A DNA stretch of 26,968 nucleotides from Bacillota bacterium. GTDB taxonomy: Bacteria; Bacillota; Sulfobacillia; Thermaerobacterales; Thermaerobacteraceae. Numbering within the stretch: position 1 is the stretch's first letter; each line of letters opens with the position of its first letter. Both the position numbers and the translations under genes were made by a program. Location: positions 1-26,968 of the forward strand of contig QGUQ01000001.1 of assembly GCA_003242195.1 (NCBI GenBank). The letters are read 5' to 3'. This document shows, one piece after another, positions 22,617 through 26,889 of this stretch. The notes below the pieces were generated by a model that saw only the letters and a list, made by a program, of their open reading frames with translations, was not told the origin of the DNA and made no database searches.

Positions 22617-23123
22617 TCATCGGCCGCCCACAGGCTCCAGCGGGATCCCCGCCTCTTCCAGGAAGCGCACGGCCAGTTCGTCCGGGTACCAGTCCCGGTA
22701 CACGATGCGGGTGACGCCGGCGCCGATCAGCATCTTGGCGCAATTGAGGCACGGCGTGGCGGTCGTGTAGAGCGTGCTCCCCTTCACGGTGACGCCGTGG
22801 AGGGCCGCCTGCAGGATGGCGTTCACCTCGGCGTGGATGGTGCGCACGCAGTGACCGTCCTTCATCAGGCAGCCCTGCTCCGTGCAGTGGGGAAATCCCG
22901 GCGGCGCGCCGTTGTAGCCCGTGGCCAGGATCCGCCGGTCTCGTACCAGCACGGCACCCACGTGCCGGCGGGGACACGTGGATCGCTTGGCCACCACCTC
23001 TGCCAGCTCCATGAAGTAGGCGTCCCAGCTCGGCCGCTCGTCGGCACCCGCGCCTTCCGGGGCCGGCCCGCCAGGAGCGCCGTCCCCACCCGGGGCCGCG
23101 GGCACCCGCCTACCCGTGACCAT
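22617..23123 (-). CDS. dCMP deaminase / ComEB-like Zn-dependent deaminase
   Basis: RPSWDAYFM, RSTCPRRHVGAV, TGYNG, TIHAEVNAI (HAE), PCLNC (PCxxC); [10 protein letters not shown] before ATG 23123. Confidence 0.9.
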   Translation of the reverse strand: MVTGRRVPAAPGGDGAPGGPAPEGAGADERPSWDAYFMELAEVVAKRSTCPRRHVGAVLVRDRRILATGYNGAPPGFPHCTEQGCLMKDGHCVRTIHAEVNAILQAALHGVTVKGSTLYTTATPCLNCAKMLIGAGVTRIVYRDWYPDELAVRFLEEAGIPLEPVGGR

Positions 23124-23220
23124 GCCGGCATTCCTCCTTCCCGATCTCCTCCGCCCACCAGAGCCCCCGCCCGCCCTCACCCCCTGCCGCGGCCGCAGCT
23201 GGCGCCGCGCGCTCGGCGCG

Positions 23221-23249
23221 TTGCCGGGCGCCGGAACCGCGGCTACAAT
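23221..23249 (+). promoter_or_regulatory. SigmaA-type promoter for the DUF2203 gene
   Basis: TTGCCG (23221-26), 17 nt, TACAAT (23244-49). Confidence 0.65.
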
Positions 23250-23315
23250 AAGACACAACCCGCATGCGGCAAGGCCCTTACTGATCCCGGGCCGGTAGCG
23301 GGCGAGGTGAGAGGC

Positions 23316-23747
23316 ATGGCAAGGACCGGCAGGCGTCGGCTGTTCACGCCCGAGGAAGCCACCGCGCTCCTCCCCGAGATCCGCCAGCGGCTGCTGCGGC
23401 TGCGGCGGCTTTACCAGCAAGCCCGCGACTGTTACCGGGAGATGGAGCAGATCAAGGCCGTGGGCTACAAGCCGGACGGCTCCCTGATCATGGCCTACGA
23501 CTACGAGCTGGCCCGGCGCGCCCTGCGGGAATCGGTGGAGCAGGCGAACCGTCTCCTGGCAGAGATCCACTCCCTGGGTTGCCTGGTCAAGGACGTGGAA
23601 CTGGGACTCGTTGACTTCCCCGCCCGCATCAACGGCAAGCCGGTCCTGCTATGCTGGCGGCTCGGCGAGCCGCGGGTTGCCTACTACCACGGGGAGCATG
23701 AAGGCTTCCGCGGCCGCAAGCCCATTCCCGGCACCGACGGCCGATGA
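23316..23747 (+). CDS. DUF2203 family protein
   Basis: RLFTPEEATALLP…GCLVKDVELGLVDFPA…VLLCWRLGEPRVAYYH…GFRGRKPI; GAGGTGA RBS before ATG 23316. Confidence 0.85.
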   Translation: MARTGRRRLFTPEEATALLPEIRQRLLRLRRLYQQARDCYREMEQIKAVGYKPDGSLIMAYDYELARRALRESVEQANRLLAEIHSLGCLVKDVELGLVDFPARINGKPVLLCWRLGEPRVAYYHGEHEGFRGRKPIPGTDGR

Positions 23748-23753
23748 AACCGG

Positions 23754-24386
23754 TCAACGGAGGAACGGGTTGTGGGCCGCCTCCTCGCCGACGGTGGTGG
23801 CGGGCCCGTGCCCGGGGTAGACGGCGGTCTCGGCCGGCAACGTCAACAGCTGCCGGCGGATGCTGGCGATCAGCGTGGCATGGTCGGCGCCCGGCAAGTC
23901 CGTACGGCCGATGCTGCCCGCGAACAGCGTGTCGCCGGCGAAGACCGCTCCCGGGATGACGTACACCACGTGCCCCGGGCTGTGGCCAGGAGCGAAACGC
24001 ACCTCGAAGGAGAGCCCGCCGAACTCCAGCCGTTCCCCGCCCTGCAAGAGCCGGTCCGCCGGCGGTGCCACCACCGGCTCGACCAGGACGGACAGGTTCC
24101 GGGTGGGATCGCCGAGCCAGTCCTGTTCGTTGGCATGGATCCAGGCGGGAGCGCCCGTCTCCCGCTTGAGCAGCTCCAGACCCGCAATGTGATCGAAGTG
24201 GGCATGGGTAAGCAGGATCGCCGCGAGCCGATAGCCCTCCACCGCCTCCAGCATGGGCTCCGGGTCGTGGGGCGCGTCGATGATCACGGCGGTGCGGCTC
24301 TCTTCGTGGACGATCACATAGCCATTGGCCTGGACCGGTCCGAGGGTGAAGCTACGAATCCGAACACGACCGTCTCCCGGCATCAC
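23754..24386 (-). CDS. MBL-fold metallo-hydrolase (glyoxalase II/YcbL-like)
   Basis: LGPVQANGY, THAHFDHIAG (HxHxDH), PGHSPG, FAGDTLFAGSIGRTDLPG, YPGHGPATT; GGAGG 8 nt before GTG 24386. Confidence 0.92.
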   Translation of the reverse strand: MMPGDGRVRIRSFTLGPVQANGYVIVHEESRTAVIIDAPHDPEPMLEAVEGYRLAAILLTHAHFDHIAGLELLKRETGAPAWIHANEQDWLGDPTRNLSVLVEPVVAPPADRLLQGGERLEFGGLSFEVRFAPGHSPGHVVYVIPGAVFAGDTLFAGSIGRTDLPGADHATLIASIRRQLLTLPAETAVYPGHGPATTVGEEAAHNPFLR

Positions 24387-24638
24387 CGTCACCGCCTCCG
24401 TTCCCGGTTTTGTCAAGCATCATCCAGCCTTCCGCCAACGGCGTCAACCGCCGTGGGCAACTTGGCTGGAGACAAGCCCGCATTACGAGACGCCGCGGGG
24501 TCTCCCCCTGCGGTGCCCACCCCAGCTCGACCCCCCAACCGGCAGGCCGCAAGCCGCCGGCGGCGAAAGTCCCCACACGGACTCTCCGGTCCCCCGGGCT
24601 CCGAAGCCCCGGGGGGTCCGGTGACGGAGGTGAGGACC

Positions 24639-25013
24639 GTGCCCGGGCCGGATGGCGGGCTGACCCGGCCGGTGATGTGGTACTACCCCGGCTGAACGTC
24701 CTGTCGCAAGGCGGAAGCGTGGCTTTCGCAAAGAGGCATCGACGTCGAGAGGCGGCATATCTGGCACAAGCCCCCGACGCGGGAGGAACTAGCGGCCCTC
24801 GCCCGCCTGCTGGGCAGCCCGGAACCCCTCCTCTCCCGCCGCAGCACCCGGTTCCGGGAGCTGCAGCCGGATCAAGAGCAGCTGCAGGGCGACAGGTTGC
24901 TGGACCTGCTGGCGGCCGAGCCCAAGCTGCTGCGCCGCCCCATCATCACCGACGGGCGGCGCGTGGTGGTGGGCTATGACGAGGCGGCGTTGGCCGCTAT
25001 GTTCGGCGCCTGA
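24639..25013 (+). CDS. Spx/MgsR-ArsC family protein with in-frame TGA at the first Cys of CxxC (probable selenoprotein, UxxC)
   Basis: GGAGGTGA RBS and GTG 24639. Translation: MPGPDGGLTRPVMWYYPG-U(TGA 24693-95)-TSCRKAEAWLSQRGIDVERRHIWHKPPTREELAALARLLGSPEPLLSRRSTRFRELQPDQEQLQGDRLLDLLAAEPKLLRRPIITDGRRVVVGYDEAALAAMFGA*. Collinear with B. subtilis Spx (YTSPSCTSCRKARAWL…STRS…LLRRPIIIDEKRLQVGYNE). Confidence 0.88.
24696..24745 (+). promoter_or_regulatory. Candidate bacterial SECIS element
   Basis: Starts right after the UGA: ACGUC/GACGU, UGUC/GGCA, then an 8-bp GCGGAAGC/GCUUUCGC stem with a GUG apical loop beginning 24 nt after the UGA. Confidence 0.75.
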
Positions 25014-25213: not shown

Positions 25214-25861
25214 CTACGGGGTCCCGTATGCCAGGGTCCAGAACTCGATCTCGAACTCCACCACACGCTGGAAGAGCCGCCGCAGGTGGTCTTCTTCCTC
25301 AGGTCGCACATCCAGGGCATCGAAGTCCGCCCGCATCCCCTCGACGAACGCCTCGAACTCGGGCGTGGCGTGCAACTCGATCCAGCGGCGGTAGGGCATA
25401 AACTCGGGATAGGACCTCCCGGCGGCCAGTGCCCAGTCCAGGTAGATCCATTCCACGGGAAGCAACACGGCCAGGCCCTCCGCATACCCGCCGAGCCCCG
25501 TGGCCCGCAGCAGGAAATCGCAAAAACACTCGGTGAGCGGCTCCGGCTTCGCCTCGCCCCACGCCGCCGGCGGAATCCCCAGGGCATCGAAGGTCTCACG
25601 GAAGAAGGCGTCCTCCGCCCCCGTCAGGACCTGGAGGAACTGCACGAACCGGCGCTTCCGGTCCATGCCGGGCGCCTTGGCCACCAAATAGGCCACGGCA
25701 TCCACCAGCGTGCCCACGAAGAGGTAATCCTGGATTACATACCGAGCAAACCGCTCCCGGGACAGCGTCCCCGCCACCAGCTCGCGGACGAAGGGGTGGT
25801 TCGTCGCCTCCTGCCAGCGGGAGGCTTGCCGGAACCGCTCCGATCGGCCGATCGGCTGCAT
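25214..25861 (-). CDS. tenA: TenA family thiamine-salvage protein (TenA_E-like, no catalytic Cys)
   Basis: HPFVRELVAGTL, FARYVIQDYLF, LLPVEWIYLDWA, WIELHA, EIEFWTLAY. Confidence 0.85.
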   Translation of the reverse strand: MQPIGRSERFRQASRWQEATNHPFVRELVAGTLSRERFARYVIQDYLFVGTLVDAVAYLVAKAPGMDRKRRFVQFLQVLTGAEDAFFRETFDALGIPPAAWGEAKPEPLTECFCDFLLRATGLGGYAEGLAVLLPVEWIYLDWALAAGRSYPEFMPYRRWIELHATPEFEAFVEGMRADFDALDVRPEEEDHLRRLFQRVVEFEIEFWTLAYGTP

Positions 25862-25923: not shown

Positions 25924-26889
25924 TCAGCTGGCGCCCCGGGCGGCCGGCGCCGCACCGGGCACCCCGGGCTCGCAGGGGCCGGCTCCCTCGCCCCCCGGCG
26001 TCGCCGGTTCTTCGGCGGCATGGGCCCGCAGCCGGGCCCGGTCCGCCTGCTCGTGGGCGTGATAGGAGCTGCGCACCAGCGGCCCCGACTCCACATGGGA
26101 GAAGCCCAGCTCCAGGCCGATCCGTTTGAGCTCGGCGAACTCGTCAGGGTGATAGTACTTCTCCACCGGCAGGTGGAGCGGGCTCGCCGTCGGCCGCAGG
26201 TACTGGCCGATGGTGACGATGTCCACCCCCACGGCCCGCAGGTCCCGCAGCGTCTCGATGATCTCGTCCCAGGTCTCGCCCAGGCCGAGCATGATGCCCG
26301 ACTTCGTGCGGATCTCGGGTGCGCGACGCTTGGATTCGGCCAGCAGGGCCAGGGAACGGTCGTACTTGGCCCGGGACCGCACCTTGTCGGAGAGCCGCCG
26401 CACCGTCTCCAGGTTGTGGTTCAGGATGTCCGGCCGGGCGTCCAGCACCACCTGGAGGGCGTCCCAGTCGCCGTTGAAATCGGGGATCAGGACCTCCACC
26501 GCCGTCCCCGGGCAGCGGCGCCGGATGGCGCGGATGGTCTCGGCGAAGATCGACGCGCCCCCGTCCCGCAGATCGTCCCGGGCCACCGACGTCACCACCA
26601 CGTGCTGCAGGCCCAGGCGCTCGACGGCGGCCGCCACGCGCTCGGGTTCCGCCAGGTCCAGCTCCGTGGGCCGGCCCGTGGTGACGGCACAGAAACGGCA
26701 GGCCCGGGTGCAGATGTTCCCCAGGATCATGAAGGTCGCCGTCAGGTTCTCGAAGCACTCGTAGATGTTGGGACAGCGGGCCTCCTCGCAGACGGTGTGC
26801 AGGTCCATGTCCCGCAGCAGGCGCTTGAGCCGGTTGTAATGGGGACCCCGCGCCAGCTTGACCTTGAGCCACGCTGGCCTTGGATTCAT
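25924..26889 (-). CDS. lipA: Lipoyl synthase
   Basis: [12 protein letters not shown] (CX4CX5C), CTRACRFC (radical SAM), [26 protein letters not shown]; GGAGGAG RBS. Confidence 0.97.

Follow-up and report, generated by a model that had tools for sequence, protein, structure and literature searches.

What does a TGA codon mean when it is the only break in an otherwise intact reading frame, and when it falls exactly on the first cysteine position of a redox motif? This is the question raised by positions 24639-25013 of the window, by which we mean the whole stretch of 26,968 nucleotides analysed here. A first-pass annotation had proposed at this place a frame led by a ribosome-binding site and interrupted by a single in-frame TGA at the first Cys of a CxxC motif. 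The frame would encode a selenocysteine (Sec)-containing, Spx-like redox protein missed by ORF calling, for which two roles were offered: a selenium-based switch on a transcription regulator, or a Sec oxidoreductase. Both the direct reading of the sequence and the alignment of homologues bear out this frame, whose elements are as follows.

24626..24630, forward strand: Shine-Dalgarno sequence GGAGG, read directly, 8 nt upstream of the GTG start at 24639
24639..25013, forward strand: predicted selenoprotein gene of the ArsC/Spx superfamily, TIGR01617 branch, with a UxxC motif; 124 residues plus a TGA stop codon, homologues conserved on both sides of the internal TGA
24693..24695, forward strand: predicted UGA selenocysteine codon, residue 19, at the same position as Cys10 of Spx
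25011..25013, forward strand: actual stop codon, a TGA that no SECIS follows; homologues terminate at most a few residues away

The TGA at 24693-24695 is the sole break in the frame and lies within YYPG-TGA-TSC-RKA, giving the protein a redox centre that reads U19-T-S-C22. In the same-genus genome G001, AGGGAGGTGAAG stands ahead of the gene's own GTG, which is found 19 codons 5′ of the Sec codon. The gene had indeed been missed by ORF calling: what the public annotation has at this locus is a fragment of 84 residues, starting 3′ of the motif and therefore without the active site. The annotation is corrected here, since public gene calls lose the active site of the selenoprotein. Some 80 related species with the TGA form probably suffer the same mis-call, since the (seleno)protein label that NF041106 carries is missing from the description of TIGR01617.

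Is the TGA genuine? The truncated public call is in keeping with a nonsense pseudogene, with an error in sequencing or with a variant genetic code, but there is next to no chance that any of these is correct. The earlier annotation had named reads with TGC or TGT as one observation that would count against it, and the contigs of four separate studies, from soil and manure metagenomes, are instead identical to the window at the TGA. Moreover, the same TGA is present in 82 genomes, at protein identities down to about 30%, with conserved coding on either side and a covarying hairpin, and these comparative data already refute such readings. As for a different code, TGA also terminates the gene itself, and no internal TGA occurs in housekeeping genes such as rpoA and selA. 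Contigs break at window positions 24662-24736 in four metagenome runs, where the summed depth rises 5- to 10-fold, because several related organisms share the stretch made up of the UGA and the hairpin almost letter for letter. In the same material, position 24990 of the window differs (T>C) in every covering contig of the four metagenome runs. The change is synonymous, TTG to CTG (Leu), and its presence in all covering contigs indicates that the window carries the minority allele.

A homologue search had been proposed for versions of the gene with either Cys or TGA at this codon, and both were found. A profile search detected the family in 104 of the 210 genomes covered, all from the same class, probably Limnochordia. 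In a hand count from the resulting table, 82 of these 104 genomes have the in-frame TGA, while 22 have only Cys (TGC or TGT). Every extracted locus carries TGA or Cys in one identical alignment column, and conservation flanks the codon on both sides in homologues as little as about 30% identical to the window protein. The Sec-form motifs include UTSC, USSC, UTTC, UPTC, USTC and UTTS, and the Cys-form motifs CTSC and CTTC. Two loci from taxonomic family f8 (L023 in G041 and L132 in G151) read RR-U-TT-S, with Ser in place of the resolving Cys and the SECIS hairpin kept. Two other ways of searching recovered less: a word-based protein search was insensitive, with 22 matches, and the pattern drawn from a 6-sequence alignment was CTSC and thus retrieved only Cys forms.

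If the UGA is decoded as selenocysteine, a bacterial SECIS element should follow closely, and the conserved part of such an element is present.

24711..24729, forward strand: upper stem-loop of a bacterial SECIS; arms GCGGAAGC / GCUUUCGC, loop GUG, 8-bp stem

The hairpin begins 19 nt from the U of the UGA, with a stem spanning +19 to +37, and overlaps codons for A-E-A-W-L-S in the window gene and for A-x-A-W-L-S more generally. In nine diverse Sec forms, 90% of the cells are paired; a shift of the 3′ partner by 1 to 3 columns lowers this to 29-51%. Compensatory changes affect three of the eight stem pairs; seven cells are changed on both sides, and neither this count nor the covariation score was reached in any of 500 shuffles. 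The hairpin at +19 is present in each of the 26 distinct Sec forms. Their mean folding energy is -11.1 kcal/mol, compared with -6.1 kcal/mol in seven Cys forms, in which the hairpin is absent or weaker. Two hairpin types occur among the 26 Sec forms, one with a GUG or GGU loop and the other with an AGUU loop, the latter in taxonomic families f23 and f35 (L114-L133, L019, L119, L128), where a 7-bp stem, GCCAAGC/GCUUGGC, carries this 4-nt loop at the same position. The longer lower stems of the window's own fold (three segments, 17 bp) were discarded, because conservation is limited to the upper 8-bp stem and the lower ones already diverge in the same-genus genome. A search of the window against Rfam gave no family match.

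The machinery for Sec insertion was the next item that the first-pass annotation had wished to see, and all four of the genes that it had listed are found in the assembly: selA, selB, selD and the tRNA-Sec gene (selC). The assembly is a metagenome bin, 92% complete with 6.9% contamination, and its sel genes all lie on contigs other than that of the window; these contigs have a G+C content of 71-73%, against a genome mean of 70%. The same-genus genome G001 also has selA. Throughout the class, selA accompanies the TGA form in 79 of the 82 genomes (hand count from two tables), the three in which it was not detected being G114 (99% complete), G146 (97%) and G183 (71%). In taxonomic family f7, none of the 33 genomes has selA and only Cys forms occur. 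Sec/Cys pairs, the SECIS, the machinery and co-occurrence are thus four independent lines, on the strength of which the comparative evidence strongly supports the earlier proposal of a selenocysteine-containing protein: the TGA at 24693-24695 is a selenocysteine codon. The selD of this genome, G000 (contig C53:1401-2327, L009), has one in-frame TGA of its own, so that SelD would itself be a selenoprotein here.

Most genomes with the family have one copy of the gene and its sub-clades track the taxonomic families of the class, for which reason its distribution within the class, as read from these sequences, fits vertical descent. In taxonomic family f1, that of the window's own genome, the gene is confined to genus g1, having been either lost in g2 or gained in g1: among the five g2 genomes (G002-G006), of which four are 98-100% complete, selA is present in all five and a family match in none. 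Across an entire class of Bacillota from compost, manure and soil, one branch of the ArsC/Spx superfamily consists mainly of selenoproteins. Because Cys returns in this branch wherever the Sec machinery is lacking, it offers a clean natural Sec/Cys series for asking why Sec is kept.

How new is such a protein? Related selenoproteins have been catalogued, in one case under the domain model cd03032, which we take to be ArsC_Spx. Arsenate reductase selenoproteins of UxxS type came from the Sargasso Sea study (PMC1088965), and the Global Ocean Sampling selenoproteome of 2008 listed 42 sequences as "Arsenate reductase 2, cd03032, UxxC" (PMC2398784). A 2026 review lists an "Arsenate reductase-like protein", NCBIfam NF041106, and has no Spx or TIGR01617 entry (PMC13188914). 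Finally, the deep-Sep reference list contains a YusI-like "Arsenate reductase" with the motif UTTC (PMC12013277, supplementary file 1). UxxC selenoproteins of the ArsC/Spx type have therefore been catalogued since 2008, and the window protein, which misses the NF041106 cut-off with 42.9 bits against 85, is a separate branch of them. It shares with "Arsenate reductase 2" and NF041106 a small thioredoxin fold of the ArsC/Spx superfamily, Sec at the first position of UxxC, homologues with Cys and a SECIS close downstream. It differs from the NF041106 example in having RRP instead of LRAP, and from "Arsenate reductase 2" in its origin, a terrestrial, thermophile-associated class of Bacillota rather than marine plankton. 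Among 12 relatives scanned with NF041106, the window protein has the best E-value, and so none of these relatives reaches the cut-off. The deep-Sep UTTC protein is likewise of TIGR01617 type; it is about 115 residues long, has UxxC and agrees with the window protein in fold and in where the motif lies. It is however YusI-like (KKFFNTSG, DGMLVKRP), whereas the window protein, with LLSRRSTRF and LLRRPII, is closer to Spx.

Placing the protein more exactly relies on family models calibrated on named Bacillales genomes. Its read-through product matches Pfam ArsC (PF03960) with 73.5 bits (cut-off 24) and passes NCBIfam TIGR01617, arsC_related, with 90.9 bits (cut-off 75.05). YusI-like proteins also pass TIGR01617, at 108-116 bits, and consequently the name that NCBI gives to this model says nothing about RNA polymerase binding. 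The Spx model NF002459 is not passed, at 82.2 bits against a cut-off of 123, and its calibration gave the following series.

Canonical Spx: 241 bits
Short Brevibacillus type: 138 bits
MgsR-like: 132-136 bits
Window protein: 82 bits
YusI-like: 58-60 bits

The description "Spx-like" is nonetheless a fair one in the sense of nearest characterised relative. L017, the closest natural Cys homologue among the genomes searched (52% identical), scores 78 bits against Spx structures, while all other solved ArsC-type proteins stay below 40. This nearest solved relative is B. subtilis Spx (PDB 1Z3E, 3GFK, 7F75), taken together with MgsR. The window gene is moreover the sole ArsC-superfamily gene detected in the 92%-complete genome, and the ArsC-superfamily search found no separate Spx there. 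In Brevibacillus genomes G211 and G214, only two ArsC-family genes are seen (L145, L146, L150, L151), one short and Spx-like without the alpha7 tail (about 115-125 residues) and one YusI-like; PF03960 found no canonical 131-residue Spx in these two genomes.

The phylogeny that had been called for, against Spx/MgsR, YusI/YffB and ArsC, does not bring the window protein any closer to the regulators. In a maximum-likelihood tree of 59 sequences over 116 columns, rooted on ArsC, the Spx, MgsR-like and short forms make up one clade (support 100/97) and the YusI-like proteins a separate one (100/98). The window protein and its relatives of taxonomic families f1, f10 and f50 fall outside both, in a basal grade that is poorly resolved, as are the deep branches of this short alignment as a whole. 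YusI of Bacillus and YffB of E. coli (PDB 1RW1; ArsC-related) nevertheless resemble it in several ways, being TIGR01617 proteins of similar length that lack a C-terminal tail and carry an acidic helix cap, [ST][DE][DE], at the site of the Spx hydrophobic patch. Besides its place outside the YusI clade, the window protein is set apart from YusI by R60 and R91 (S60 and K91 in YusI), and from YffB by a score of 24 bits on NF008107, whose cut-off is 121.

What, then, would such a protein do? The intact gene at 24639-25013 probably encodes a thioredoxin-fold selenoprotein that works as a selenol/thiol oxidoreductase, and of the two roles originally offered this one is now the better supported. In the CxxC centre of the thioredoxin fold, Sec takes the place of the nucleophile, just as it does in other catalogued UxxC selenoproteins. 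The 8-bp, GUG-loop hairpin at 24711-24729 can direct SelB and Sec-tRNA(Sec) to the UGA at 24693. In the mechanism that we propose, helix alpha1 would carry the selenolate at its N-terminus, from where it would attack an oxidised substrate; a selenenylsulfide with Cys22 would then form and be reduced by a cellular reductant, for instance thioredoxin. Some relatives have UxxS instead, and there the part of Cys22 would fall to an external thiol. Forms of this kind have no resolving Cys, which suits an enzyme that draws on an external thiol better than it does an intramolecular switch.

Could the enzyme be a glutaredoxin-type arsenate reductase (ArsC), with Sec replacing Cys12? The Pfam ArsC match, Sec at the Cys12 position, Arg at the equivalents of R60 and R94, and the UxxS arsenate reductase selenoproteins already known (PMC1088965) all lean that way. 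Yet the catalytic triad is incomplete, as the third Arg (R107 equivalent) is a Tyr, and the TIGR00014 model of ArsC arsenate reductase is not passed, with 48.6 bits against a cut-off of 106; for these two reasons the protein does not appear to be an ArsC-type arsenate reductase. Since its motif is also UxxC and not UxxS, and there are no ars genes nearby in the window, we regard this assignment as very unlikely.

More weight has to be given to the regulator. Here the protein would be an Spx-like regulator with a redox switch based on selenium: it would bind the alpha-CTD of RNA polymerase, and a U19/C22 selenenylsulfide would turn on a thiol-stress regulon, which would thereby depend on selenium supply. 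The closeness of L017 to Spx speaks for it, and so does an NF002459 score above that of YusI-like proteins. The gene is also the only Spx-like one found in its genome, whose alpha-CTD retains the SVRSYNCLKR motif. Several Spx features are kept as well: UxxC, S-x-R-S, RRPI and, in Spx numbering, T11, S12, R14, K15, S58, R60, R91, R92, P93, I94 and Y105, which include most of the DNA-face residues (T11, S12, R14, K15, S58, R60, R91, R92, Y105). However, these residues surround the redox centre, and most of them are also present in at least one of YusI, YffB and ArsC. The two motifs expected of the CxxC switch and of the RPI element are there, as UTSC and RRPI, but as YusI has both they do not discriminate.

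The contacts specific to polymerase binding tell more, and they can be compared with those described in a cryo-EM study of Spx (PMC8501982). In that work, the hydrophobic centre that packs on V260 and Y263 of the alpha-CTD consists of L46, G52, V71, M74, L76 and L79. E50 and D51 contact sigma-A, and helix alpha7 contacts sigma-A region 4 (PMC8501982). The same helix carries part of the region recognised by YjbH/ClpXP, a feature of canonical Spx only. Aligned with these six hydrophobic positions, the window protein has A46, S52, Q71, L74, G76 and L79, so that two of six are kept. The family consensus (A, G, polar, L, acidic, L) keeps three, no different from the three of E. coli ArsC, whereas MgsR-like proteins keep all six. 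The one-residue shift in the register of G52 that had been noticed at first is real, the window protein having G51-S52; most of its relatives have G at 52, which can be counted in favour of the regulator. E50 and D51 are replaced. The protein stops at about Spx residue 116, and the alignment therefore agrees with the initial remark that the Spx C-terminal tail is missing: helix alpha7 and the YjbH/ClpXP recognition region are both absent.

To this must be added the NF002459 score, which falls short of the cut-off and of the 132-138 bits of MgsR-like and short Brevibacillus-type proteins; the position outside the Spx/MgsR clade; and the UxxS variants of family f8 among related forms of the class. 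No Spx/MgsR or RNA-polymerase-binding selenoprotein appears in the 2026 selenoproteome review, where a "putative regulatory protein, FmdB family" is the sole entry resembling a regulator (PMC13188914). The claim of a selenium-based switch on an RNA-polymerase-binding regulator thus finds no positive support, the features specific to binding being mostly absent, and we consider it improbable. A complex prediction between L017 and its own alpha-CTD returned a score of 0.00, which carries no weight either way. In a broader form, the Limnochordia-type protein would be a functional counterpart of Spx with a diverged RNA polymerase interface and a selenenylsulfide switch, in a lineage from which no canonical Spx is recorded by these searches; this is unlikely. 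If true, it would be the first selenocysteine-based transcription regulator and would tie a stress regulon to selenium availability. The view of Spx regulation stays unchanged unless RNA polymerase binding is shown. On the polymerase side, where B. subtilis has Y263 in the alpha-CTD, the rpoA of G043 (L141), a genome with the Cys form, encodes Phe, and that of G000, the genome of the window, encodes Tyr.

With an oxidoreductase as the preferred reading, one may look to the neighbouring genes for its substrate.

22617-23570, reverse strand: 317-residue ORF with a dCMP/cytidine deaminase domain at residues 181-291 only
23754-24416, reverse strand: metallo-beta-lactamase-fold hydrolase, divergent flank
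25214-25861, reverse strand: TenA/THI-4-family protein, convergent flank
25924-26889, reverse strand: lipA, after the TenA/THI-4-family gene

The thiol/redox neighbourhood that had been suggested is real within the window, where the metallo-beta-lactamase-fold hydrolase, the TenA-family protein and lipA are all present, but only close relatives share it. Across the class as a whole no neighbouring gene is conserved, and no conserved neighbour points to a substrate, so the redox-looking context carries little weight. Synteny is limited to taxonomic families; in f23, for example, the gene is accompanied by those for a YfkB-like radical SAM protein, GlpP and an alpha/beta hydrolase. As for the ORF at 22617-23570, its long N-terminal part is rich in Pro, Arg and Gly and is probably untranslated, the real start probably lying further in.
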